A DNA stretch of 64,000 bases, taken from the NCBI GenBank assembly GCA_021413905.1, contig JAIOPO010000001.1:137159-201158 (forward strand), in the 5' to 3' direction. This document shows, piece by piece, positions 1,287 through 53,061 of the stretch (the stretch's first letter is position 1; every line of letters starts with the position of its first letter). Both the position numbers and the translations under genes were made by a program. This DNA comes from Candidatus Nomurabacteria bacterium (GTDB taxonomy: Bacteria; Patescibacteriota; Minisyncoccia; Phycocordibacterales; UBA9973). The notes under the pieces are model-generated. The model saw only the letters and a list, made by a program, of their open reading frames with translations. It did not search any database and was not told where the DNA came from.

Positions 1287-2984
1287 ATGTCCCACGAAAT
1301 ACAAAAAGTCACATGTCAGAATCACAACATCAGTAAACACTGCCAAGGGGAATTTACGATAGAACCCGATGATTTTGTGTTTTACAAAAAGATAAAAGTG
1401 CCTCCACCGACATTTTGTCCGGAGTGTAGAACCCAAAGAGCTATGGTTTGGAGAAATGAAACAACTTTGTATTCAGGTAATAAATGCAATCTTTGCAATA
1501 AAAGTGTTTTAACTATGTATAATCCAAAATCTGATTTTATTATTTATTGTAATTCATGTTATAGGGGAGACAAATGGGAACCAAGAGATTATGCAATGGA
1601 TTATGATTTTTCAAAATCATTCTTTGAACAATTTGAAGATTTGATGCGCAAAGTTCCTAAGAATGCATTATATAATACGAGTGGAGCTGGATTGATAGTT
1701 GATAGTCCTTATAACAATTGTGTTGGAGGGCTTAAGAATTGCTACATGTGTTTTAATTCAGCTAATTTAGAAGATTGCATGTATTCAAGAGGGGTTACAC
1801 GTTCGAAAGAAGTTTTGGATTCTTATTTTTGTAAAAAAATAGAAAATTGTTATGAGGCAATAAATACATATAATAGTGTGAATTCTTTTTGGATACAAAA
1901 TTCAAATGATATCTTAGATTCAATTTTTTTATATGATTGTGCAAATGTTTCAAATTGTTTAGGTTGTGTTAATTTGAGAAATAAAAGTTTTTGCATATTA
2001 AATGAACAATATTCCAAAGAAGAATATTTTAGTTTTTTAAATAAAATAAAAGGTTCATATTCAAATCTAGAAAATTTTAGAAATCAATTTATTTCATTGA
2101 CAAAAAGTTTACCAAAAAGAGCTAATCAAAATATTAAAACAATGGATTGCGTAGGGGATTATTTAACAGAATGTAAAAATGTTAAACATGGATTTGAAGT
2201 TATGAACTCTGAAGATTGCAAAAGGATATATTTTGGTAGGGATATAAAAGACAGTAGAGGTACTATTGGGTATGGTATAAAATCAGAGCTACTTTTAGAA
2301 TGTGTTTCCACTGGTTATACTTCTAGGGCTATCGGATGCTGGGCTTGTGAATTATCTCAAGATTTAGAATATTGTGTATCGTGTTTTCCTAGTAATAAGA
2401 ATTTAATAGGATGCGATTCTATGAGAAATTCTCAATATTGTATTTTAAATAAACAATATTCAAAAGAAGAATACGAAAAAATAAAAATACATATAAATGA
2501 AGAACTTACAGTATTAGGAGTCTATGGATTAATGTTACCTTCTGAAATTTCTCCTTTTTCTTATAATGAAACATTGGCACAAGATAACTATAATTTATCA
2601 GAAGAAGAAGTTTTAAAAGAAGGTTTTGTGTGGGAAAAAGACATACAAATGACCTCGGGAAAAGAAACCGCGGACATAAATTCTTTAGTAGATAATATCA
2701 ATGAAACTTCAGAAGATATATGTAAAGAAATTTTAGCCTGTATTGATTGTAATAGAAACTATAAAATAACTGAGCAAGAATTTTATTTCTACAAAAACAA
2801 AATTATCCCTGTTCCAAGAAAATGTTTTTATTGTAGACATCAATCAAGAATAGTGAAAAGAGGAAGTTTGAGATTTGATAAAGAAATATGTAATAAATGT
2901 AATATTGATATATATACAAATTTAAATCCCAAAGACGGAGATATAGTTTACTGTGAAAAATGTTATCAGCAAAAAGTTTATTAA
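1287..2984 (+). CDS. Cysteine-rich repeat protein with N- and C-terminal tetra-Cys zinc-ribbon-like modules, function unknown
   Basis: 565 aa, about 50 Cys. N-terminal F.FYKKIKVPPPTFCPECRTQR...C..C...YC.SCY resembles the C-terminal FYFYKNKIIPVPRKCFYCRHQSR...CNKC...YCEKCY. Internal repeats include RNKSFCILNEQYSKEEY and RNSQYCILNKQYSKEEY. Confidence 0.7.
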   Translation: MSHEIQKVTCQNHNISKHCQGEFTIEPDDFVFYKKIKVPPPTFCPECRTQRAMVWRNETTLYSGNKCNLCNKSVLTMYNPKSDFIIYCNSCYRGDKWEPRDYAMDYDFSKSFFEQFEDLMRKVPKNALYNTSGAGLIVDSPYNNCVGGLKNCYMCFNSANLEDCMYSRGVTRSKEVLDSYFCKKIENCYEAINTYNSVNSFWIQNSNDILDSIFLYDCANVSNCLGCVNLRNKSFCILNEQYSKEEYFSFLNKIKGSYSNLENFRNQFISLTKSLPKRANQNIKTMDCVGDYLTECKNVKHGFEVMNSEDCKRIYFGRDIKDSRGTIGYGIKSELLLECVSTGYTSRAIGCWACELSQDLEYCVSCFPSNKNLIGCDSMRNSQYCILNKQYSKEEYEKIKIHINEELTVLGVYGLMLPSEISPFSYNETLAQDNYNLSEEEVLKEGFVWEKDIQMTSGKETADINSLVDNINETSEDICKEILACIDCNRNYKITEQEFYFYKNKIIPVPRKCFYCRHQSRIVKRGSLRFDKEICNKCNIDIYTNLNPKDGDIVYCEKCYQQKVY

Positions 2985-2986
2985 AT

Positions 2987-3520
2987 TTATTTCTTAAAAG
3001 TTTCAAATAAAAACTTTTTTGTTTCTTCGTCTATGTATTCTGTTTTTATTATCATCATCTCTGTGGTGAGTCCTAAATCTTTTTTTATATTTTCAAAAAG
3101 GTATTCATACGGGAAAGGGGAGATCCAAGCAGAATTTTTCAAGCAGACGAAGCCCGCTTTTTTTAATAAATAGCGCAAGCTCTCTCGCTCGTTTTTTCTA
3201 TTCTCCGGCAAGTCGAGTAAAATAATCCTCCAAAATCCGTCCCAAGAAGTGTTTGCCAAAGTCGTCTCATTTTCCAGCCTTAAACTATGCATTTTCTTTT
3301 TTCCTTCTTTCGTCAGTCTCGCATAATCATTCTGCCCGGATGAGATGTGTTCTACTAGCCCTGCGTCTCGTAGGCCTTTTAAAGACCTTGTAATAGCATA
3401 CTTGTCTAGGGCGGAGGAGTTTCCTTCGCTATCTGCTTTATTGTGCAATTCTGGCAATGAAACGGCATTTTTACCCCCTAAAATCCTTATTATTTTCTTG
3501 GAAAAGTCTTTGTTTTTCAT
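2987..3520 (-). CDS. Putative PaaX-family-like transcriptional regulator (winged-helix N-terminus plus PaaX_C-like domain)
   Basis: 177 aa. N-terminal wHTH-like segment (LKGLRDAGLVEH). C-terminal WDGFWRIILLDLPENRKNERESLRYLLKKAGFVCLKNSAWISPFP matches the W.G.W...D.PE..R..LR..L...GF pattern of the PaaX C-terminal domain. Confidence 0.55.
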   Translation of the reverse strand: MKNKDFSKKIIRILGGKNAVSLPELHNKADSEGNSSALDKYAITRSLKGLRDAGLVEHISSGQNDYARLTKEGKKKMHSLRLENETTLANTSWDGFWRIILLDLPENRKNERESLRYLLKKAGFVCLKNSAWISPFPYEYLFENIKKDLGLTTEMMIIKTEYIDEETKKFLFETFKK

Positions 3521-3645
3521 AAATTTGTCCTGTCCCGTTAGAGATAGGGAATCTTTAGATTACCGTAAAAGCTCTAATGGGATTGACATACTTATATCCT
3601 ATCATATATACTGTTTTTAACAAGTATTCTGCGGTCGCGAAATAC

Positions 3646-3674
3646 TTGCAAAATAATTAGGGCTTCTATATAAT
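3646..3674 (+). promoter_or_regulatory. Sigma70-like promoter TTGCAA-N17-TATAAT driving LMW-PTP-like gene and probably dnaK
   Basis: ttgcaa at 3646-3651, 17-nt spacer, tataat at 3669-3674. ATG at 3683 implies a 1-2 nt leader. A second TTGACA-N16/17-TATATA is at 3583-3611. Confidence 0.4.
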
Positions 3675-3682
3675 AGGTTTAT

Positions 3683-4096
3683 ATGAGAAAAATTATTTTC
3701 ATTTGTAAAAGAAATAGATTTAGAAGCCAGATTGCTAAGGCTTTAACTAATAAATTACTTAGCGATAATTGGGTAGCTGAATCTTATGGATTTTTAGTTA
3801 GACCAGAAGATGAAAAAAATCCTTTTTCTAATAATCCAAAAGTAGGTGAAACAATTAAGGGTTTGAAGGAAATAGATATTGATATCTCTGATGGTTTGTC
3901 GAAACAACTTAGTTCAGAAAATTTAGAAGATGTAAATAGAATTGTTGTTTTGACTGAAGAAGAAGATATTCCAGATTGGTTTAAAAAATATGATTATGAA
4001 CATTGGAATGAAATAAAAAATTTCCCTGGAAGTCCAACTTTAGAAAAAACAAGGAGAACAATCGAGTTAGTTAAAAAAAGATTAGAAACATTATAA
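3683..4096 (+). CDS. Low-molecular-weight phosphotyrosine-phosphatase/ArsC-fold protein with divergent P-loop
   Basis: 137 aa. N-terminal IIFICKRNRFRSQIAKAL fits the LMW-PTP C-x5-R-S P-loop but with CKRNRFRS instead of C(L/T)GN(I/T)CRS. DIPDW loop downstream. Only 21 nt separate it from dnaK. Confidence 0.65.
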   Translation: MRKIIFICKRNRFRSQIAKALTNKLLSDNWVAESYGFLVRPEDEKNPFSNNPKVGETIKGLKEIDIDISDGLSKQLSSENLEDVNRIVVLTEEEDIPDWFKKYDYEHWNEIKNFPGSPTLEKTRRTIELVKKRLETL

Positions 4097-4117
4097 AATT
4101 AATTAAAATAAAAAAAT

Positions 4118-6025
4118 ATGTCAAAAATAATAGGAATAGACTTGGGTACAACAAATAGCGCGGTTGCTATTATCGAAGGAGGACAGCCGAAGATTATAGA
4201 AAATATTGAAGGGGCGAGGACGACGCCGAGTATTGTTTCCGTGGCAAAAAATGGAGACAGATTAGTGGGGCTACTTGCAAAAAGACAAGCGGTGACAAAT
4301 CCGGAAAATACCGTGTACGGTATCAAGCGTTTTATGGGTCACAATTTTGAAGATCCGGAAGTGCAGAAAGATTTAAAAAATGCTTCTTTTAAAATCCAAA
4401 AATCCGCAAACGGCGGAGTGGAAGTAAAAATCGGCGATAAATGGATGCGCCCGGAAGAAATTTCCGCGATGATTTTAACAAAAATCAAAACAGACGTGGA
4501 AGCAAAAATCGGAGAGAAAATAACCGAAGCAGTGATCACAGTGCCTGCATATTTCAACGATGCGCAAAGAAAAGCGACAAAGGATGCAGGAATGATTGCC
4601 GGTCTTGATGTGAAAAGAATTATCAACGAGCCGACAGCGGCAGCTCTTGCATATGGTTTTAATTCAAAGAAAAATGAAAAGATAGTGGTGTATGATTTTG
4701 GAGGCGGAACATTTGATATTTCTGTTTTGGAAGTGGGTGATGATGTTATTGAAGTGAAGTCTACAGATGGAGACAGTCACCTCGGCGGTCGCGACCTTGA
4801 CCACAAGATTATCGCTTGGATTGCGGATGAATTTAAAAAGACTTCAGGTGTGGATGTACGCACTGACGCATTGGCATTGCAACGTCTCGATGAAGCTGCG
4901 GAAAAAGCAAAGATAGAGCTTTCTACAGCTATTGAAACAGAAATAAATATTCCTTTTATCACTTCCACAGCTTCAGGTCCGCAACACTTACTCTTGAAAA
5001 TGTCTCGCGCTCAGCTCGAAGCTATTGCGGATGAATATGTGTCTCGTTCTATTGAGATAACAAAACGCGCGATGACTGCGTCCGGTTTTAAAATGGAAGA
5101 AATAAATGAAATTGTGATGGTCGGAGGTCAGACAAGAATGCCGAAAATTGTGGAAGCGGTGAAAAATCTTTTTGGAAAAACTCCAAACCTTTCTATTAAT
5201 CCTGACGAAGTGGTGGCTCTCGGAGCTGCGGTGCAAGCGGGAGTGTTGCAAGGGGATGTGAGGGATGTTTTGCTTCTTGATGTTATTCCATTATCTTTGG
5301 GTATTGAAACATTGGGCGGAGTGGCTACGAAACTCGTGGAAAGAAATACGACAATTCCATCAAGTAAATCACAAGTATTTTCTACAGCAGCGGATAATCA
5401 GACAAGCGTGGAAATACATATCGTGCAAGGTGAAAGACCGATGGCATCTGATAACAAATCATTAGGAAGATTTATTCTGGATGGTGTACCACCGGCACCT
5501 CGTGGTATTCCGCAAGTGGAAGTTTCTTTTGATGTGGATGCAAATGGAATACTCAATGTGACTGCGAAAGACAAAGCTTCCGGTAAAACTCAATCTATTA
5601 AAATAGAAGCGAGTTCCGGTTTGAAAGATGAAGACATAAAGAAAATGCAAGCTGATGCCGAAGTGCACGCCGAAGAAGATAAAAAGAAAAAAGAAATGGC
5701 GGATGTGCGCAATACTGCGGAGATGACATTGTACACAGCAGAGAAATCTTTAAAAGATAATGAAGCAAAAATTCCAGAAGAGGTGAAAACAGAAGTAAAT
5801 GAAAAAATCACAAATGTGCGCTCTACAAAAGACAGCACAGATATGGAAGCTTTGAAAAAAGCGGTGGAAGAGCTTTCATCTTCAATGTCTAAGATTGGCG
5901 AGGCTATGGCTAATTCTTCGGCAAGCGCAGGACAAGAACAAGCAGAATCTTCAAATGTTGAAGAGCAACCAACAGAAGTAAAAAATGAAGAAGTAAAGCC
6001 TGAAGGCGAAGAGCCAAAAGCTTAA
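4118..6025 (+). CDS. dnaK: Molecular chaperone DnaK (Hsp70)
   Basis: 635 aa. [41 protein letters not shown] and other Hsp70 signatures, with acidic C-terminal tail. Confidence 0.97.
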
Positions 6026-6037
6026 TACTACTAAAAA

Positions 6038-6066
6038 GCCCCGCGCCTTTGGCGCGGGGCTTTTTG
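6038..6066 (+). terminator. Strong GC-rich intrinsic terminator after dnaK
   Basis: gccccgcgcc-ttt-ggcgcggggc perfect 10-bp GC stem followed by ttttt. Separates dnaK from the downstream ATPase gene. Confidence 0.85.
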
Positions 6067-6071
6067 TTTGT

Positions 6072-7880
6072 TTGTATTTTTGGTATAATAAAAAAATGGA
6101 TTCTCACGAATTGCCAAAAAATAAAGATTTGACATATATCGGACTGACGACTTTTCGTGATAAGAAAAATCTTTTTGGTATAAAACGTAAAGACAGAAGA
6201 CAACATGTATATGTATTGGGTAAATCCGGTACCGGTAAATCCGTGCTTCTTTCCAATATGATTGTGCAAAATATCCAAAATGGAGACGGTGTTTGTGTTG
6301 TGGATCCACACGGAGAACTCGTCGAAGGAATATTACAATCCATACCAGAGAATCGCTTGAAAGATGTAGTATATTTTAATCCGGCGGATACGGATTATCA
6401 TATTGGTTTCAATGTATTGGAATTAATAGATCCGAAATACAAACATCTCGTGGCTTCCGGACTCATGGGTATTTTTACTAAAATTTGGGCTAATGCATGG
6501 AGTGCCAGAATGGAATATATTTTAAATAATGCTATTTTGGCATTGCTTGATACTCCGGGTTCCACATTACTCGGTATTCCAAGACTTTTGGTTGATAAAG
6601 ATTATCGTCAAAAGATAATAAATAATTTGAAAGACCCTGTTATCAAAGCTTTTTGGATTCATGAATATGAAGCTTGGCAAGAGAAATTTCGAAATGAAGC
6701 TATTGCACCTATTCAAAACAAAGTCGGACAATTCCTCTCTACATCTATCATTCGTAACGTTGTCGGCCAAGCAAAAAGCACGATAAATATTTTCGACATT
6801 ATGAATGAAAGTAAAATATTTTTGGTGAATGTTTCCAAAGGGCGTATTGGTGAAGATAATTCCGCTTTGCTCGGAGGTATGATAATTACAAAAATACAAC
6901 TCGCCGCGATGGAACGCGTGCGTATACCCGAAGATGACCGTAAAGATTTTTATTTATATGTGGACGAATTCCAAAATTTTGTGACGGATTCTTTCGCAAG
7001 TATTCTTTCTGAAGCTCGTAAATATCGCCTCAATCTGACTGTCGCTCATCAATACACAGCACAACTCGTCACAGACAATGGTTCTGCTGTGCGTGATGCT
7101 GTTTTTGGTAACGTCGGAACAATGATTATTTTTCGTGTCGGTGCAGACGACGCTGGCTTTTTAGAAAAAGAATTTGAACCTGAATTCACACCTCAAGATA
7201 TTGTGAATTTACCAAACTATAAAATATATTTGCGTTTAATGATAGACGGAGTGACTTCCAGACCATTTTCCGCAAAAACATTGCCACCAATAATAAAAAA
7301 TCCAGATCCAAAAATAGAGCAATCTGTAATAGATTCTTCTCGTGCATTGTATTGTTTACCAAAAGATGTGGTAGAAAGAGAAATCAATAATTGGAGTGGT
7401 ATGTCTTTGGGAGACAATGAAAATGGAAATATGGAAAAATTCCCGGCTGTTTGTTCTATTTGTAAAAAAGAAACTTTTGTCCCATTCCAACCACAACCGG
7501 GCAGACCTGTGTATTGTAAAGATTGCATAGCAAAAATGAAATCCGGTGAGTTAAAGCCATTGAGTGGTTCTATGAATCAAATAAAACAAGATGAAAGTAA
7601 ATTTTATCAACCCTTAGTTGATTTAGGTATAGAATTTAGTGATAAAGGTAATGCAAATACTAATAATATCAAACCAAAAAATAATAGTGTTATTTCTTCT
7701 GTAAAAAATATATTCAACAAAAATCAGAATTCAAATACATTGAAACCTCCGATGAATAAGAATATAAATAATTTCAATAAATTTAAAAATCCTGCTCCTG
7801 TCATAAAAAAGCCAGAAATAAAAAAAGAAACCTGTCATAAAAAAGCCAGAAATAAAAAAAGAAAATGTTGCTTTGCGTGA
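6072..7880 (+). CDS. Soluble VirD4/TraD/TrwB-like (T4CP family, FtsK-HerA superfamily) P-loop ATPase, paralog 1; reading frame broken near 3' end
   Basis: Walker A VLGKSGTGKS, then VVDPHGEL (compare TrwB GATGTGKS...DPNGD). Walker B FYLYVDEFQN. LTVAHQYTAQL fits the T4CP QxxxQL motif. No N-terminal TM segment. C-terminal CxxC...CxxC zinc ribbon and K/N/P-rich tail. Confidence 0.8.
   Translation: MYFWYNKKMDSHELPKNKDLTYIGLTTFRDKKNLFGIKRKDRRQHVYVLGKSGTGKSVLLSNMIVQNIQNGDGVCVVDPHGELVEGILQSIPENRLKDVVYFNPADTDYHIGFNVLELIDPKYKHLVASGLMGIFTKIWANAWSARMEYILNNAILALLDTPGSTLLGIPRLLVDKDYRQKIINNLKDPVIKAFWIHEYEAWQEKFRNEAIAPIQNKVGQFLSTSIIRNVVGQAKSTINIFDIMNESKIFLVNVSKGRIGEDNSALLGGMIITKIQLAAMERVRIPEDDRKDFYLYVDEFQNFVTDSFASILSEARKYRLNLTVAHQYTAQLVTDNGSAVRDAVFGNVGTMIIFRVGADDAGFLEKEFEPEFTPQDIVNLPNYKIYLRLMIDGVTSRPFSAKTLPPIIKNPDPKIEQSVIDSSRALYCLPKDVVEREINNWSGMSLGDNENGNMEKFPAVCSICKKETFVPFQPQPGRPVYCKDCIAKMKSGELKPLSGSMNQIKQDESKFYQPLVDLGIEFSDKGNANTNNIKPKNNSVISSVKNIFNKNQNSNTLKPPMNKNINNFNKFKNPAPVIKKPEIKKETCHKKARNKKRKCCFA
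7797..7864 (+). repeat. Perfect 34-bp tandem duplication (2 copies) causing +1 frameshift
   Basis: cctgtcataaaaaagccagaaataaaaaaagaaa at 7797-7830 is repeated exactly at 7831-7864. 34 is not divisible by 3. Removing one copy fuses ORF 6072.. in frame with ORF 7873..8220. Confidence 0.9.
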
Positions 7881-8220
7881 TATTTTAAATAAAACTTTGA
7901 CTGAAAATAAAACTCTTGAAATAAAAAAAGAAGAACCTAAAGTTATAGAAATTCCAAAACCTGTACCACCGGCAATATCTTTAAATGAATTGAAACCTCA
8001 AAATACAACTGTAATAAATTCAAATGACCGTTCAGCCGGAGCAGACAAAATGAATGCTTTGAAAAATTTAATTACAGAGAAAACTGAACAAAAGAAAACA
8101 GAAATGCCTGCACCCACACCTTCTGTATCTGCGACACCAAAACCTGTTATGAATGATGTCGTCCCAAAACCACCTATCAAAGAAGTCCCCGAAGAAGTTT
8201 TAAAAGGATTATTGGAATAA
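7873..8220 (+). pseudogene. Probable C-terminal continuation (about 118 aa, K/P/T-rich low-complexity tail) of ATPase paralog 1, displaced by the 34-bp duplication
   Basis: With one repeat copy deleted the upstream ORF reads ...PEIKKENVALRDILNKTL..., giving an approximately 704-aa protein. Composition continues the lysine/proline-rich tail. Confidence 0.6.
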
Positions 8221-8225
8221 ATTAT

Positions 8226-8435
8226 ATGGATATAAAAATTAAAATTTTAGAAAACAAAATTAGTATAGATGAAGTAAAAAAACTTGCTGATTTTTGGTAT
8301 GGAACGATGATAAAAGGAGCCGTGGACATCGAAAATGGTAGAGTCGCATTAGGTAATCGTTCTAGAAACATAGTAAATCAAGAAGTTACCCAAACAGCAA
8401 CTCAGATTATTCATAAATTTATTGATTTAAAGTAA
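8226..8435 (+). CDS. Small hypothetical protein (69 aa)
   Basis: ORF with a 5-nt gap after the upstream ORF. Sequence LADFWYGTMIKGAVDIENGRVALGNRSRNIVNQ is vaguely reminiscent of small CPR-restricted DUF families. No confident assignment. Confidence 0.4.
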   Translation: MDIKIKILENKISIDEVKKLADFWYGTMIKGAVDIENGRVALGNRSRNIVNQEVTQTATQIIHKFIDLK

Positions 8436-8436
8436 T

Positions 8437-8733
8437 ATGGAAAAAAATGCACTTTTTTATATGGCGAATTTGTATCCGGAAATAGGAAGACTTTTTTCAT
8501 TTTATGATTCCGGAAAGATTGAAGCTGTGCAAAATGCTCAAAAAAGATCTTTGGATATTGTCGATAAAATATTATCTTTTAATGAAGAAATAAAACCAGC
8601 CGGAAGGGAAGAATGGAATGTTATAAGAAATTTTATTTTAGCTTTTGATAAATTGGATAGTGAAGAAAGAAATATTTTAGAAAAATACGCAGAACCTTTT
8701 TCTTATAAATTTATGAATCAATATACATCTTAA
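8437..8733 (+). CDS. Small hypothetical protein (98 aa)
   Basis: ORF beginning 1 nt after the previous stop. Overlaps the convergent rsmE end by 4 nt. No recognisable motifs. Confidence 0.4.
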   Translation: MEKNALFYMANLYPEIGRLFSFYDSGKIEAVQNAQKRSLDIVDKILSFNEEIKPAGREEWNVIRNFILAFDKLDSEERNILEKYAEPFSYKFMNQYTS

Positions 8734-9425
8734 ATCCCTTGTACTGCGCGATAGGTGGCGATGATGCCGGCGGTTTCTCCACGGAGAGTGAGTGAACCGA
8801 GAGATGCCACAGTATAATCATATTCTTTTGCGAGAGTTATTTCTTTTTCAGAGAAACCGCCTTCAGGCCCGACAAAAATAGCTATTTCTTTTGCATTTTT
8901 GTCGGGCCTGTATTCTGTATCAACTAAATGAAAAATAACTTTTTCATTTTTATTTTTACCATGCTCTAGGGCATTTTGAAAATTCATAGTATCTAAAAGT
9001 TCCGGCACGACGCTTCGGCCGGATTGTTCGCTCGCTTCACGAATTATTTTTTCAATGCGTTCTGTATTCAATCCTGTTTTTACTGTGCGTTCGGTTATTG
9101 TCGGTATTATACAGCTCACTCCGCATTCGACGGATTTTTGCACAGCTATTTCAAAATTTTCTTTTTTTAAGATTGCCAAATATAAATACACTTTTCGCTT
9201 CGGTTCTTTTGTTTCTATTCTTTTTTCTATCTTACAAATTATTTCATTGTGTGAAAGGAAAGAAATGACAACTTCTGTTTCAATACCTTTTCCATCGCAA
9301 AGTATGAGTTTGTCGCCCTCTTCTAGTCTCAAAACACCCTTTATTTGCTTGATATTTTCAGGATTTGTGATTTTAACCTCTTTTTTATTTAAATCAAAAT
9401 TTCCAATAAATCTATGTAATCTCAT
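8730..9425 (-). CDS. rsmE: 16S rRNA (uracil1498-N3)-methyltransferase RsmE
   Basis: 231 aa. Starts MRLHRFIG. Has GPEGGFSEKE and SLGSLTLRGETA motifs typical of RsmE. Confidence 0.85.
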   Translation of the reverse strand: MRLHRFIGNFDLNKKEVKITNPENIKQIKGVLRLEEGDKLILCDGKGIETEVVISFLSHNEIICKIEKRIETKEPKRKVYLYLAILKKENFEIAVQKSVECGVSCIIPTITERTVKTGLNTERIEKIIREASEQSGRSVVPELLDTMNFQNALEHGKNKNEKVIFHLVDTEYRPDKNAKEIAIFVGPEGGFSEKEITLAKEYDYTVASLGSLTLRGETAGIIATYRAVQGI

Positions 9426-9462
9426 ATTTTATATGATACACTTAGATAGATAAAAATCCAAA

Positions 9463-10950
9463 TTGAGAAAAGTGTCAATTTGTAGTAAAATTAAAACAAT
9501 GTCATTAAAACCAAATCGAGTTCAAATAATCAAATATGCGCCACCACCACCGGAATTACCCGTATATGGCAAAATAAAACCTGAAGAAGTTTCTTTTATT
9601 GGGCGGACAAATTATGTCGCAGCTCTCGAAGAAAAGAAATTTATTTTTGGAATAAAACGTATCGACAGACGAAGACATTTATATATTGTCGGTAAATCAG
9701 GAGTAGGTAAATCAAAATTACAAGAATTAATGATTCGCCAAGACATAGCTTATGGCTATGGTGTCTGTGTTATAGATCCGCACGGAGAATTGATAGATGA
9801 TATTTTGGAATTTGTTCCGGAGAATCGCATTGAAGATGTTTGTATTATCGACCCGAGCGATGTGGATTTTCCTGTTTCTTTTAATCCTTTGGCAAATATT
9901 GATCCAGGGTTTAAACATCAGCTCACTCAAGGTTTGATTGAAGTTTTGAAAAAGCAATTCGGTTCAAACTGGACACCGCGTCTAGAACACGTATTTCGTT
10001 TTACTGTGCTTGCTTTGCTCGACTATCCATATGCCACAATGCGCGGAATGATTTCAATGTTGACCGACAGAAATTATAGACAAAAAGTAGTCGAATATAT
10101 CGAAGATGATATGGTTAAAAGATTCTGGGCTATAGAATTCGCTGATTGGTCTGAAAAATTCGACACAGATGCCATCATTCCGCTCGTGAATAAACTCGGA
10201 CAATTCCTCTCAGACCCTATGCTTCGCAATATTTTCGGTCAAATAGAAAACAAAGTTGATTTGGAAAAATTAATGAATGAACAAAAAATAATTTTCATTA
10301 ATTTGTCAAAAGGGCGTATCGGAGAAGAAAATGCTTCTTTCTTTGGAGCGATGTTTATCACAAAAATAAAACAAGCCGGTATGGCTCGTGCAAAACTTGC
10401 CAAAGAAGATAGACATGATTTTTATTTATATGTGGATGAGTTTCAGAATTTGGTGACAGACACATTTGAAAACATTTTATCTGAAGCTCGTAAATATGGT
10501 TTGAATCTGACTGTGGCGCACCAATACGTGAGTCAACTTTTGCCGAAAGTGCAACAAGCTGTGATGGGTAATGTAGGCTCTATTATCACATTTCGTGTCG
10601 GTGGTGATGATGCAGTAAAATTAAAACCTGAATATGAACCTATTTTCGGAGTGAAAGATATGATAAATCTGGGAGTGGGAGAATTTTATATCAAAATGAC
10701 GATTGATGGCGAGAGTTATGATCCTTTTTCCGCAGAGACTTTGAAAGTTTTACCACCGACACATCCTTCATATAGAGAGCGCATTGTGGAAGCTTCTCGC
10801 AGGAAATACGCAATGCCAGCCGAAGACGTGAAGCGTGTTTATGAACAAGAAGAATCAATGATTGTCCGTAGCGCAAAAGAAAAGTCAGCAATCGTTAGCG
10901 ATAAGATTGAAGATAAAAAAACTGAAGAAGATATCAGTCCGTTAATATAA
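9463..10950 (+). CDS. Soluble VirD4/TraD/TrwB-like (T4CP family) P-loop ATPase, paralog 2
   Basis: 495 aa. IVGKSGVGKS, VIDPHGEL, FYLYVDEFQN, LTVAHQYVSQL. About 50% identical to paralog 1 over the ATPase core with the same motif order. No TM segment. Confidence 0.8.
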   Translation: MRKVSICSKIKTMSLKPNRVQIIKYAPPPPELPVYGKIKPEEVSFIGRTNYVAALEEKKFIFGIKRIDRRRHLYIVGKSGVGKSKLQELMIRQDIAYGYGVCVIDPHGELIDDILEFVPENRIEDVCIIDPSDVDFPVSFNPLANIDPGFKHQLTQGLIEVLKKQFGSNWTPRLEHVFRFTVLALLDYPYATMRGMISMLTDRNYRQKVVEYIEDDMVKRFWAIEFADWSEKFDTDAIIPLVNKLGQFLSDPMLRNIFGQIENKVDLEKLMNEQKIIFINLSKGRIGEENASFFGAMFITKIKQAGMARAKLAKEDRHDFYLYVDEFQNLVTDTFENILSEARKYGLNLTVAHQYVSQLLPKVQQAVMGNVGSIITFRVGGDDAVKLKPEYEPIFGVKDMINLGVGEFYIKMTIDGESYDPFSAETLKVLPPTHPSYRERIVEASRRKYAMPAEDVKRVYEQEESMIVRSAKEKSAIVSDKIEDKKTEEDISPLI

Positions 10951-10964
10951 AATTTTAAAAAAAT

Positions 10965-10992
10965 TTGACCAAAGTTTTTGCTTGAGTATAAT
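10965..10992 (+). promoter_or_regulatory. Sigma70-like promoter TTGACC-N16-TATAAT for dnaJ (leaderless configuration)
   Basis: ttgacc at 10965-10970 and tataat at 10987-10992. The dnaJ ATG at 10999 is 7 nt after the -10 box. Confidence 0.45.
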
Positions 10993-10998
10993 ACAAAT

Positions 10999-12099
10999 AT
11001 GAGTAAAGATTATTATGAACTATTGGGTATAAATAAAGGCGCGAGTAAAGAGGAGATAAAAAAGGCCTTTCATAAAATGGCGCATAAATATCATCCTGAT
11101 AAAAAAGAAGGAGATGAAAAGAAATTCAAAGAAGTAAATGAAGCGTATCAGACTCTCTCTGACGATAGAAAGCGCGCGCAGTATGACCAATTTGGCGCAG
11201 GTTATCAGAATGCTGGTTTTGGTGGTGGACAGAGCGGATATCAAGGTGGTTTCGGAGGAGGTTTTGAAGGATTTGATTTTTCCGGTTTCCAACAAGGTGG
11301 TGGAATGGATTTTGATTTAAATGATATTTTCTCAGATTTCTTTTCCGGAGGTATGGGCGGAGGTAGAACACAACAAAGACGTGGACGAGATATTTCTACT
11401 GAAATACAAATTTCTTTTGCCGATGCGGTTTTTGGCGTGGACAGAAAAATTTTAATTACAAAGACTTCAAATTGTGATACTTGTCATGCTAGTGGTGCAA
11501 AACCTGGAACCAAAATGGAGACTTGTAAGAAATGCAATGGTCAAGGAAAAATACACGAAGCAAAGAGGACGATATTGGGAACAATTTCCAGCACAAAACT
11601 TTGCGAGCAATGTTTTGGCTCAGGCGAAGTACCGAAAGAAAAATGTGAGAAATGTCATGGTGTGGGTGTTCTAAAAAAACAAGAAGAAATATCTATCGCA
11701 GTGCCTGCGGGCATTCGTGATGGCGAGATGATACGCATGACGGGCATGGGTGAAGCTGTTTCTAAAGGCACTACTGGCGACTTGTATATAAAAATAAATG
11801 TTGCTCCGCATCCTGTGTTCAAACGCGATGGGCATGACCTAGTGATGAATTTAAATTTGAAACTTTCTGATGCATTACTCGGCACTGAATACAAAATAGA
11901 AACTTTGGACGGGGAAGTGAAAGTGCAAATTCCTGAAGGTGTCACCATAAATGAAATCTTGCGAGTGAAAGGCAAAGGCGTACCTGTATCAAAAGGCAAA
12001 CGTGGCGATATCCTTATAAAACTAAATATAAAACTCCCTTCAAAAATCTCCCGCAAATCTCGCGAGTTAATCGAGGAACTCAAAAAAGAGGGGATTTAA
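10999..12099 (+). CDS. dnaJ: Molecular chaperone DnaJ (Hsp40)
   Basis: J-domain DYYELLGI...[17 protein letters not shown]-rich linker, four CxxCxGxG zinc-finger repeats, C-terminal dimerisation region. The start is chosen at MSKDYYE rather than the upstream TTG. Confidence 0.95.
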
Positions 12100-12987
12100 T
12101 TATTTAAATCTTTTCTTAAACTTATTCGCTATCATGGTATAGCAAAGCTGGGCTGCGCCGTATTCGGTCAGTATTGTGTCGTGTTGTGGGGAGACTTCCA
12201 CGATATCTGCGCCGACGAGTTCTTTTTTCTGGATTATTTTTTCCAAAAGATTTACTCCATACCACCATTCAAGTCCGCCTTGTACGGATGTACCAGTGCC
12301 AGGCATATGAGCAGGGTCAAAACCGTCCACATCTATCGTGATATAAACATATTTTGTTTTAATTGATTTCAAGATTGTTTCTATTGTAGGTATTTTGCCT
12401 GCGCCCCATTCAAAAACAGTCACATCATTTTTTTTATTGCTGAAATAATTATATTCATCACGAGAATATGTGCGGATGCCGACTTGCACTAGAGGGAAGC
12501 CAAGCTCGCTGGCGCGACGCATCACGCAAGAATGCGCATAATTTGTCGGGTCATCACTATAATCACTGTCGTCATTTCGCAAATCGCAATGCGCATCTAT
12601 TTGAACTATTGTGATATCTTTTGATTTGTGTTTTTTAGACAAAGCTTGCAATGCACCTAGAGACACAGAATGCTCTCCACCCAAAAGGAAAACAAATTTT
12701 CCAGTTTCACCTAATTCAGCGCATTTATCGATAATTATTCCCAAAGCTTTTTCTGGAGAATGTTTATCCAAATTGCCTAGGTCCGCCTTTGCTGTTTTTA
12801 TAAAATCAGTCGGCTCACATTTTAACTTTCTATCAAAAAATTCTATTTGTTTTGAAAGCTGACCGATGATTGCCTTTGGTCCGTCCGCTGTGCCTTTGTG
12901 CGAAGACGCAGTTTTCTCATAGCTTGCAGAGAGCATTACTACATCCGCTTTTTTAATATCTTTTTCATTTATTATTGAATCACTCAT
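12100..12987 (-). CDS. Arginase/agmatinase-family ureohydrolase
   Basis: 295 aa. GGEHSVSLG, DAHCDL, DVDGFDP and PGTGT metal-binding motifs of the arginase fold. Confidence 0.8.
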   Translation of the reverse strand: MSDSIINEKDIKKADVVMLSASYEKTASSHKGTADGPKAIIGQLSKQIEFFDRKLKCEPTDFIKTAKADLGNLDKHSPEKALGIIIDKCAELGETGKFVFLLGGEHSVSLGALQALSKKHKSKDITIVQIDAHCDLRNDDSDYSDDPTNYAHSCVMRRASELGFPLVQVGIRTYSRDEYNYFSNKKNDVTVFEWGAGKIPTIETILKSIKTKYVYITIDVDGFDPAHMPGTGTSVQGGLEWWYGVNLLEKIIQKKELVGADIVEVSPQHDTILTEYGAAQLCYTMIANKFKKRFK

Positions 12988-52197: not shown

Positions 52198-53061
52198 ATG
52201 CAAATCAATAAATTACCAAAAAATAAATTCCCAAAAGAATTATTTGAAATACCTCAACCTCCTGAGAATCTGTGGATTATTGGTGACTTTCCAGAAGAAG
52301 AACTTATTTATTTATGTATTGTTGGTTCTAGAAAATTCACTTCTTATGGAAAAGAAATTTGTGAAAAAATAATCACAGGACTAAAAGGATATCCGATAGC
52401 TATAGTTTCCGGTTTTGCTATGGGTATAGATACTATCGCTCACAAAAAAGCGATGCAAATGGGATTAAAAACTCTAGTTTTTCCTGGTTCAGGACTTTCT
52501 GATGAAGCCATGTACCCAAAAACAAATGTGCGCTTGATGCGAGAAGTCGTGGAAAGTGGCGGATGTTTAATTTCAGAATTTGAACCCGATTTCAAAGCTA
52601 CTCACTGGAGCTTCCCGATGAGGAATAGACTAATGGCAGGACTTTGCAAAGCAACACTTGTAATAGAAGCGGAAGAAAAATCCGGCACACTTATAACTGC
52701 ACGACTCGCTACAGAATACAATAGAGATTTACTTGCAGTTCCAGGCTCTGTATTTTCTCCAAGTTCAAAAGGAACAAATAAATTAATCAAGCAAGGCGCG
52801 ACACCTGTGACTTGTGCTGAAGATGTTTTGGAAGCTTTGGGTTTCGAACAAGAAAAAGATGAAGACAAACAAATGCGACTTTTTGAAGATTTGTCACCGG
52901 AAGAAAAAAAGGTTATAGATTTATTACGTGAACCTATGTCACGTGATGAATTAATACGAGAATTAAAAATGAAAATTTCAGATGCAAATTCACTACTTTC
53001 AGTAATGGAAATAAAAGAGTTAATAAAAGAAGAATTGGGTGATATTAGGTTAAATATGTAA
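52198..53061 (+). CDS. dprA: DNA processing protein A (Smf)
   Basis: 287 aa. Rossmann-like core CIVGSRKFTSYGKEI...IVSGFAMGIDTIAHKKA...GTLITARLA plus C-terminal wH-like extension. TATAAT ends 7 nt before the ATG. Confidence 0.88.
   Translation: MQINKLPKNKFPKELFEIPQPPENLWIIGDFPEEELIYLCIVGSRKFTSYGKEICEKIITGLKGYPIAIVSGFAMGIDTIAHKKAMQMGLKTLVFPGSGLSDEAMYPKTNVRLMREVVESGGCLISEFEPDFKATHWSFPMRNRLMAGLCKATLVIEAEEKSGTLITARLATEYNRDLLAVPGSVFSPSSKGTNKLIKQGATPVTCAEDVLEALGFEQEKDEDKQMRLFEDLSPEEKKVIDLLREPMSRDELIRELKMKISDANSLLSVMEIKELIKEELGDIRLNM

Follow-up and report, generated by a model that had tools for sequence, protein, structure and literature searches.

We analysed a 64-kb stretch of DNA (64,000 nucleotides, G+C ~33%; hereafter the window) from a 274-kb contig of Candidatus Nomurabacteria (Patescibacteria, class Paceibacteria). 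Between dnaK and dnaJ it carries two paralogous ATPase genes, here called par1 and par2, whose products resemble the VirD4/TrwB-type coupling proteins (T4CPs) of type 4 secretion systems (T4SSs). The par1 gene lies at 6096..7880 on the forward strand and encodes 594 aa, in which a VirD4/TrwB-type core is joined to a zinc ribbon and a tail rich in K, E and P. The par2 gene (9499..10950, +) encodes 483 aa with a core of the same type, a YAPPPPELP motif at the N-terminus and an acidic C-terminus ending in PLI. Both open reading frames (ORFs) of the original prediction, 6072..7880 and 9463..10950, exist. Read from TTG codons they encode 602 and 495 aa, and the likelier starts are the ATG codons at 6096 and 9499, which yield the NCBI protein P0121 and the protein P0001, respectively. 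These two and P0241 are database proteins 100% identical to ORFs of the window. The motifs GKSG(T/V)GKS, V(V/I)DPHGEL, FYLYVDEFQN and LTVAHQY..QL are all present in both paralogs; Walker A is located at 6219..6242 (+) in par1 and 9691..9714 (+) in par2, and Walker B at 6951..6968 (+) and 10423..10440 (+). The two proteins had been described as about 50% identical, which is right: over 433 aa we find 47% identity and 70% similarity (E=6e-146).

The zinc ribbon of par1 (7434..7541, +; residues 455-490) is of the treble-clef type and scores above cut-off with TIGR04272 (49.1 bits, cut-off 36) and with PF23477, zf_Tbcl_2 (47.6 bits, cut-off 27). The original prediction had recognised this ribbon and had given its spacing as CxxC-x16-CxxC, where the actual spacing is CxxC-x17-CxxC. 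This domain binds zinc in small proteins of Methanosarcina (PMC12704099). Behind the ribbon, a perfect 34-nt tandem duplication (2.0 copies; 7797..7864, +) shifts the par1 frame and detaches the last ~115 codons, the conserved C-terminal motif included. The detached C-terminus (7865..8220, +; 7873..8220 as a mechanical ORF call) ends in EVPE(D/E)VL+K(I/L)LE, and deletion of one repeat copy restores a 696-aa par1 ORF ending in EVPEEVLKGLLE. We surveyed the motifs of 120 sequences per paralog (240 in all). Among the 120 par1 sequences (the window protein and 119 orthologues), that of the window, with 594 aa, is the shortest; the orthologues measure 650-803 aa, with the ending ...[IVLM]LE, most commonly ...DVLRKILE, in 87%. 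Judged by this comparison, the detached ORF is the genuine C-terminus of par1, placed out of frame by the duplication. The tail listed beside paralog 1 in the original prediction thus belongs to the gene, and only the frameshift sets it apart. The duplication itself may be a genuine mutation, a variant of this strain or an artefact of the assembly. The par1 tail matches nothing above cut-off in Pfam or NCBIfam.

Relationship to VirD4/TrwB-type coupling proteins

Four independent lines of comparison agree with the VirD4/TrwB-family assignment already made for the pair: Pfam, a profile search of the Protein Data Bank (PDB), structure prediction and a plasmid-encoded T4CP of Embleya. Both proteins score above the Pfam gathering thresholds for TrwB_AAD_bind, T4SS-DNA_transf, DUF87 and TraG-D_C. 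The par1 scores are 47.5 bits for TrwB_AAD_bind (cut-off 20.5), which aligns as a single stretch over profile positions 12-311, 37 bits for T4SS-DNA_transf (cut-off 20.1) and 30.4 bits for TraG-D_C (cut-off 22); the corresponding scores of par2 are 26.9, 32.4 and 24.9 bits. When a profile of the family was compared with PDB sequences, TrwB was the sole match at E<=0.01 and VirB4 followed at E=1.7, with TcpA and FtsK missing from the matches up to E<=10. HMMER aligns the regions of Walker A and the DPxG element, and of Walker B and the RK..Q..QL motif, to TrwB, and the P-loop core is that of T4CPs of the VirD4/TrwB/TraD/DotL type. Among plasmids (tblastn), par2 is 31% identical (E=1e-54) to an 812-aa T4CP of Embleya, which is encoded in the order PrgI, VirB4-like ATPase, T4CP, relaxase and NlpC/P60 hydrolase, a T4SS locus of the monoderm type.

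An all-alpha insertion in the nucleotide-binding domain is a hallmark of T4CPs. An AlphaFold2 (AF2) model of the par2 monomer (pLDDT 76, pTM 0.78) predicts such a block at residues 136-246, between the core strands that carry Walker A and Walker B. It consists of seven helices (136-157, 160-174, 181-189, 191-198, 204-216, 218-237 and 240-246; pLDDT 80-94). In Foldseek, the model matches DotL best (2.9e-11), then TrwB (~1e-10), the first HerA (5.5e-10) and Cagbeta (~1e-9), and the margin between these is small. HerA and other translocases of the FtsK-HerA superfamily are also close: the superfamily fold is shared, DUF87, the central domain of HerA, scores above cut-off and HerA is a close second in Foldseek. 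Unlike HerA, including the HerA of defence systems, par1 and par2 have no partner nuclease or effector, and the all-alpha insertion and the TraG-D_C match are features of T4CPs. An FtsK/SpoIIIE-type translocase was considered and rejected, there being no PF01580 match for either protein at E<=0.01, no transmembrane (TM) segments and no FtsK among the PDB matches.

The pair also departs from known T4CPs. Neither protein has an N-terminal TM domain, and neither gene is accompanied by VirB4, a relaxase or other T4SS genes. They are two fixed paralogs, encoded as chromosomal core genes and conserved at the level of DnaK, and each carries its own appendages, namely the zinc ribbon, the tail and the C-terminal peptides. 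Because they have no TM anchor and no T4SS or relaxase neighbours, and because they score below the curated NCBIfam cut-offs, we place par1 and par2, on the sequence comparisons, in a distinct and divergent branch of the VirD4-type T4CP family, within no characterised subfamily. In one of the cluster representatives, P0495 (1080 aa), a par-like ATPase ends in an S1 RNA-binding domain (23.4 bits, cut-off 22). This domain and the zinc ribbon of par1 hint that the tails of the family may bind nucleic acid.

The missing membrane anchor

Both proteins were predicted to be soluble and to have no N-terminal TM helices. The hydropathy profiles are in keeping with the second point: the highest 19-residue Kyte-Doolittle mean is 1.2 in par1 and 1.0 in par2, against 2.2-2.9 in the controls, FtsW and an ABC transporter. 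The soluble state, however, is derived, since relatives keep an anchor either fused to the ATPase or encoded as a separate gene upstream. Many of the 150 best cluster representatives have an N-terminal extension of 280-470 aa, often with a TM helix at its start, and one such relative is a "DUF8128 domain-containing protein" of Ca. Berkelbacteria, another class of the Candidate Phyla Radiation (CPR). Extended forms occur in the par1-like set (51) and in the par2-like set (16). The duplication that gave rise to par1 and par2 is therefore older than the loss of the extension, and the pair is an old duplication, as had been proposed, and not a recent repeat.

The separate anchor was found in a set of 83 loci centred on par2 orthologues, made up of 80 GTDB species representatives and three metagenome contigs. 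In 11 of them, all from Paceibacteria (L047, L049, L057, L062-L064, L077, L078, L080, L081 and L083), a gene that we call F19 (~460 aa, N-terminal TM) stands two ORFs upstream of par2. F19 aligns over its full length to the N-terminal extensions of the fused forms (E~1e-50). The order in these loci is secD, secF, a sigma-like/HARE-HTH gene, F19, F20 (172 aa, TM), par2 and one to six copies of a gene family called ZNF. In L063, for example, F19 spans 8042..9448 and F20 spans 9451..9969, and in L062 the genes F19, F20, par2, ZNF, ZNF and par1 form a single co-directional cluster. Neither F19 nor F20 matches anything above cut-off in Pfam or NCBIfam. Fused T4CP-like proteins from other lineages of the CPR carry F19 as their N-terminal extension. 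The arrangement of F19 and par2 is thus a gene fission at the PP..LP linker, and the "soluble" state of the pair reflects an anchor that was lost or split off.

A precedent is TraJ of plasmid pIP501, a T4CP devoid of TM helices for which the small membrane protein TraI has been proposed as the anchor (PMC12857230). By description, TraJ and the par proteins are alike in being coupling ATPases without TM helices of their own, with a separate membrane protein proposed to serve TraJ (PMC12857230), and F19 (TM and ~460 aa) and F20 (172 aa, TM) encoded just upstream of some par2 relatives. They differ in setting. TraJ, of the Gram-positive MPF-FATA class, is plasmid-borne and functions in conjugation, its tra operon also encoding a relaxase, whereas par1 and par2 are chromosomal, far from T4SS genes and without an anchor gene in the window.

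Conservation and gene neighbourhood

The pair is widespread. At least about 8,000 scored relatives were obtained for each paralog, and the best 120 of them are 80-94% identical for par2 and 83-87% identical for par1. Across Paceibacteria, orthologues of both are 76-90% identical. A profile search of 1.84 billion cluster representatives returned 26,558 matches at E<=1e-3 and 8,507 at E<=1e-30. The catalytic motifs are intact in 96-100% of the 120 orthologues of each paralog. The appendages are equally persistent: par2 orthologues have the N-terminal PPPP(E/D)LP in 99% and the ...EPLI end in 97%, and the ribbon is present in all 120 par1 orthologues, each with 117-326 aa of K/E/P-rich tail behind it. 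Averaged over 12 syntenic loci, identity to the window amounts to 78% for par2 and 76% for par1, compared with 82% each for DnaK, DnaB and RplU, 75% for RecR, 74% for GrpE, 69% for DnaJ, 60% for RsmE and 58% for CysS. Both par1 and par2 are core genes under strong constraint and with vertical inheritance.

Few and distant viral matches and remote plasmid relatives mean that the pair is not mobile-element cargo. A phage origin was rejected, since 2.9 million viral contigs gave only 12 distant matches at <=40% identity. A recent origin from a plasmid or an integrative and conjugative element was rejected as well: the best plasmid matches are <=36% identical, and 336 of the 412 matched records are typed as non-mobilizable. 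The window scan covered 38 ORFs, including all ORFs of 250 aa or more, and found no relaxase, VirB4, pilin or integrase among them, in line with the view that this is not a conjugative element.

A separate observation concerns par2. The window copy is 86-90% identical to par2 of genomes with a different synteny (for example L004 and L005), in which CysS is only 40% and RplU 63-67% identical to the window, and just 77-80% identical to par2 of genomes with the same synteny, which are closer in par1, CysS and RplU. This conflict of the par2 phylogeny with synteny, par1, CysS and RplU suggests that the window par2 may have been replaced in place by a foreign allele.

Synteny was counted by tblastn of window proteins, and the counts are lower bounds because many contigs are short. 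Within 10 kb of par2, par1 was found in 51 of the 83 loci; dnaJ was found in 40, normally directly after par2, and dnaK in 21. The par2 tree has three clades, which match three gene arrangements: dnaK-par1-(ZNF)n-(rsmE)-par2-dnaJ; par2-(ZNF)n-par1 with other flanks; and F19-F20-par2-(ZNF)n. An independent example of dnaK-par1...par2-dnaJ that mirrors the window is L085. The position between dnaK and dnaJ, to which the original prediction had drawn attention, is thus no quirk of this assembly and does recur. It is conserved in one par2 clade and is not general, since the other two clades have other neighbours.

The dnaK gene (4118..6025, +) is followed by an intrinsic terminator at 6032..6066 (+), with a 16-bp stem of which 10 pairs are G-C and a T-run behind it. 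It is by far the strongest terminator-like site within 3500..12500, which bears out its earlier description as very strong. Promoter-like sites precede par1, par2 and dnaJ. An extended -10-like box, TGGTATAAT (6081..6089, +), ends 6 nt before the par1 ATG; TTGAGA-17-TAAAAT (9463..9491, +) ends 7 nt before the par2 ATG; and TTGACC-16-TATAAT (10965..10992, +), with 11 of 12 matches, ends 6 nt before the dnaJ ATG at 10999, in agreement with the suggestion that dnaJ has a promoter of its own. Overall, the promoter scan does not exceed chance, with 35 sites found and 29.6 +/- 5.9 expected. The -10-like hexamers stand 6-7 nt ahead of the ATG in all three genes (6084..6096, 9486..9499 and 10987..10999), and there is no Shine-Dalgarno sequence between these hexamers and the ATGs. 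This spacing suggests that the mRNAs of par1, par2 and dnaJ may be leaderless; for par1, it is the box ending 6 nt before the ATG that makes a leaderless mRNA possible.

ZNF genes form the largest gene family near par2, with 154 copies in 1.28 Mb, of which 152 are on the same strand as par2. The window copy (1287..2984, +) encodes a Cys-rich protein of 565 aa with two CxxC-x17-CxxC motifs (C67..C91 and C535..C559). A locus may contain up to seven copies, and the paralogs within a tandem array are 29-48% identical. A ZNF gene directly adjoins a par gene in 39 of the 83 loci (median gap 48 bp), and such cases occur in each of the three synteny clades. ZNF accounts for 13.8% of the ORFs in the 29 loci whose flanks are complete, and its density peaks next to par2. 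The family has thousands of members of ~560 aa, probably cytoplasmic and all annotated as "hypothetical". Its proteins have duplicated N- and C-terminal double-zinc modules, each with a CxxC-x17-CxxC motif, and a middle part of Cys-rich short repeats that is predicted to fold as a solenoid. They have no TM helix by hydropathy and no obvious N-terminal signal peptide on reading, no predictor having been run. ZNF has no significant match to solved structures and nothing above cut-off in Pfam or NCBIfam. A hidden Markov model (HMM) of the par1 ribbon matches the N- and C-terminal ribbons of 16 ZNF proteins (E<1e-3) and none of the 929 other ORFs in the neighbourhoods. The window copy matches this HMM at E=0.29 and the curated ribbon models below threshold (14.8 bits). 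Starting from five ZNF genes, a par gene was found within 10 kb in one of the five contexts (L085); in the other four, the arrays follow rpoD, lie near RNR or adjoin RuvX or a PIF1 helicase. The family is large and dispersed, each genome having many arrays, so that its contact with par genes could in part be due to chance. We regard the link as a suggestive lead, with adjacency enriched and not exclusive.

The 5' part of the window contains, in order, rpsI, grpE, the ZNF gene, a PaaX-like gene, an ArsC-like phosphatase gene, dnaK and par1. The small PaaX-like regulator gene (2987..3520, -), with a PaaX_M Cas2-like domain (E=6e-20), keeps its position between the ZNF gene and dnaK in 12 related loci. 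After par1 come two small ORFs, rsmE, par2 and dnaJ. The small ORFs, of 69 and 98 aa (8226..8733, +), are co-directional with par1 and, like the convergent rsmE, are present as originally described. The 69-aa ORF (8226..8435) has a sub-threshold match to the first 38 of the 109 model positions of DUF5674, and the 98-aa ORF has no family above cut-off in Pfam or NCBIfam. In L053 and L068, homologues of both are found close to par2 and to ZNF genes. The homologous match to the 69-aa ORF in L068 is longer (~116 codons), and the window copy may for this reason be a truncated remnant. The rsmE gene (8730..9425, -) encodes a 16S rRNA methyltransferase (Methyltrans_RNA, E=1.5e-39) and is found at this place in 15 related loci; it is context and not part of the par system. 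Downstream of dnaJ are an arginase-family gene, cysS, a CorA-like gene, rplU, recR and dnaB. Genes for translation, the cell wall and division make up the remainder of the window, along with dnaX, dprA-topA, relA, parB, murA and alr. The dprA gene noted earlier in the same window is present at 52198..53061 (E=4e-66), 41 kb from the pair and next to topA.

Possible functions of the pair

We take the CONJScan profiles t4cp1 and t4cp2 both to be VirD4-type, with TcpA covered by a separate profile, and the assignment of the t4cp2 pair given below also leans on this. Orphan T4CPs of Patescibacteria are already on record: 5,713 VirD4-type T4CP homologues were reported in 2,918 of 3,035 genomes (96%; Quinonero-Coronel et al., 2025; PMC12102498). 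In the same genomes, VirB4 was reported in 2,417, including most of the Nomurabacteria listed, and relaxases are almost absent (PMC12102498). These orphans, VirD4-type, present at ~2 per genome and rarely near virB4, are almost certainly the same genes as par1 and par2. Table S3 lists four T4CP-profile matches in each of three Nomurabacteria genomes (GCA_000989175.1, GCA_000989355.1 and GCA_000989365.1), namely an adjacent t4cp2 pair and two dispersed t4cp1, none of them near virB4 (PMC12102498). By its adjacency, this pair may correspond to par1/par2, and the same adjacency of par1 and par2 is seen in L041, L043, L048, L065 and L076. Given four matches per genome, there are probably further T4CP-like genes outside our window. 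The T4CP/VirD4 passages of this source count matches and their proximity to virB4, and within those passages we found no treatment of anchor loss or fission, paralog types or conservation, nor of the zinc ribbon, C-terminal motifs or ZNF arrays. A search for literature on TraG/DUF87 in Parcubacteria returned nothing relevant. Judged by these passages and a review, what appears to be new is that the orphans form two kinds of paralog, that their anchor underwent fission, how strongly they are conserved, which terminal motifs they carry and their possible link to ZNF.

The reading that we prefer, though tentatively and at somewhat less than an even chance, is that par1 and par2 are coupling ATPases descended from an anchored T4CP of the monoderm type, with the resident non-conjugative T4SS of Patescibacteria as their conduit. 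The ancestor would have been membrane-anchored; its N-terminal TM segment and ~400-aa domain have been lost from the pair, and in some relatives they persist as a gene of their own. We infer that par1 and par2, each alone or jointly, would form an ATP-driven ring, which a separately encoded partner would bring to the membrane. The ring would recruit substrate and hand it on, most likely to the resident T4SS. Docking and recognition could involve the zinc ribbon, the long disordered tail and the conserved C-terminal peptide of par1, and the PPPPELP N-terminus and acidic ...EPLI C-terminus of par2.

Several observations weigh against this. The curated NCBIfam T4CP cut-offs are missed by a wide distance (54-55 against 366 bits for SXT_TraD, 53.5 against 250 for CD1115), and coupling proteins are not usually as conserved as DnaK. 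No F19-type anchor gene lies within the 64-kb window. There is no virB4 beside the pair in the window, nor among the recurrent gene families of the 83 loci. In the published counts, only 148 of the 5,713 T4CP homologues are near virB4, and homologues occur in more genomes (2,918) than VirB4 does (2,417) (PMC12102498). One locus with F19, F20, par2 and five ZNF genes, L081 (Ca. Liptonbacteria RIFCSPLOWO2_01_FULL_53_13, GCA_001818895.1), is VirB4-negative in Table S1 of that study; as a single scaffold-level assembly, it may simply be missing the gene. The two further T4CP-profile matches per Nomurabacteria genome could be the real T4SS partners. In Ca. Southlakia epibionticum, moreover, the t4cp homologue was reported as not essential while other T4SS genes were essential, for which reason the authors state that exaptation of T4CPs "cannot be ruled out" (PMC12102498).

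Such exaptation would make the pair a housekeeping motor that works without a T4SS, as a nucleic-acid or protein translocase or remodeller, cytoplasmic or self-anchored, with the ZNF proteins as clients or adaptors. We think this possible, if rather doubtful. It would account for T4CP homologues being commoner than VirB4 and almost never near it, and it has been raised in the literature (PMC12102498); the DnaK-like conservation and the housekeeping genomic context agree with it, as do appendages that look nucleic-acid-binding (the treble-clef ribbon of all par1 orthologues, the S1 domain of P0495). The co-directional ZNF genes (152 of 154), their direct contact with a par gene in 39 of 83 loci and the ribbon HMM that matches ZNF ribbons and 0 of 929 other ORFs also speak for it. 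Yet there is no direct evidence for any substrate, only one of five ZNF-started contexts has a par gene within 10 kb, so that adjacency could be partly chance, the window ZNF matches the ribbon HMM at just E=0.29, and relatives keep a membrane anchor, which fits a role in transport. A bolder and unlikely variant joins par1/par2, an F19/F20-type anchor and the ZNF arrays into an unrecognised, T4CP-derived housekeeping system of Paceibacteria, in which the ultra-conserved ATPases would recognise the ZNF proteins, a large and diversifying zinc-ribbon/beta-solenoid family, via the shared CxxC-x17-CxxC ribbons and then load, remodel or export them.

T4CPs are DNA-dependent ATPases of the FtsK/HerA superfamily, and this general property would suit a motor for DNA uptake, with DNA entering via ComEC and type IV pili or via the T4SS. 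Nucleotide synthesis is beyond CPR bacteria and import would be valuable to them (PMC12102498, PMC12857230), and both proteins weakly match the NCBIfam model of CedD, a DNA-translocating ATPase of archaea (E 1e-5 and 3e-9), though far below cut-off and over the Walker A region only. The original prediction had linked such a role to dprA, for which we found no support: dprA is 41 kb off, beside topA as is usual for it, the pair is close to no comEC, comF or pilus gene either in the window or in the 83 loci, and comEC was dispensable in the one CPR bacterium tested (PMC12857230). DNA import is accordingly improbable in our judgement. We give still less credence to an anti-phage ATPase of the HerA type, resembling mad8 of the MADS system or half of a HerA-effector pair. 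The best PADLOC match is indeed mad8 (E 6e-16 and 1.6e-15, ~260 of 314 profile positions), with several HerA models behind it, and HerA follows T4CPs closely in Foldseek (5.5e-10 against 2.9e-11). No defence gene and no nuclease or Sir2-type effector adjoins the pair, however, and the neighbours tested have no other PADLOC match. The presence of the pair in very many Paceibacteria contigs at 76-90% identity is the opposite of patchy, fast-evolving defence islands, viral matches are just 12 and distant, and the all-alpha insertion and TraG-D_C match indicate a T4CP. With only generic HerA and mad8 ATPase matches among housekeeping neighbours, the defence reading was rejected. Least credible of all is a functional partnership with the DnaK/DnaJ chaperone system, for instance in remodelling. 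The order dnaK-par1...par2-dnaJ does recur, with dnaJ in 40 and dnaK in 21 of 83 loci and L085 as an independent case. Against this, the arrangement belongs to one par2 clade, the others having secD-secF-sigma-F19-F20-par2 or par2-ZNF-par1, and in these two clades the synteny is lost without loss of either gene set. A strong terminator insulates dnaK, and par1, par2 and dnaJ each have a promoter-like site of their own. Nothing was found for the chaperone-linked role once proposed.

Much of bacterial diversity belongs to Patescibacteria, which live attached to the cells of a host. Where this has been tested, in a single system, the host-attached lifestyle depends on their T4SS, which has no relaxase. 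If ZNF proteins were exported by the system outlined above, they would be the long-sought non-DNA cargo of this relaxase-less, growth-essential T4SS of the CPR. With a fixed paralog pair under DnaK-level constraint, anchor loss or fission, conserved terminal peptides and a ribbon shared with a hugely expanded family next door, a published gene count becomes a set of testable hypotheses on cargo. Should the pair instead act without the T4SS, it would be a rare example of domestication, in which a conjugation motor became a core ATPase of the cell.

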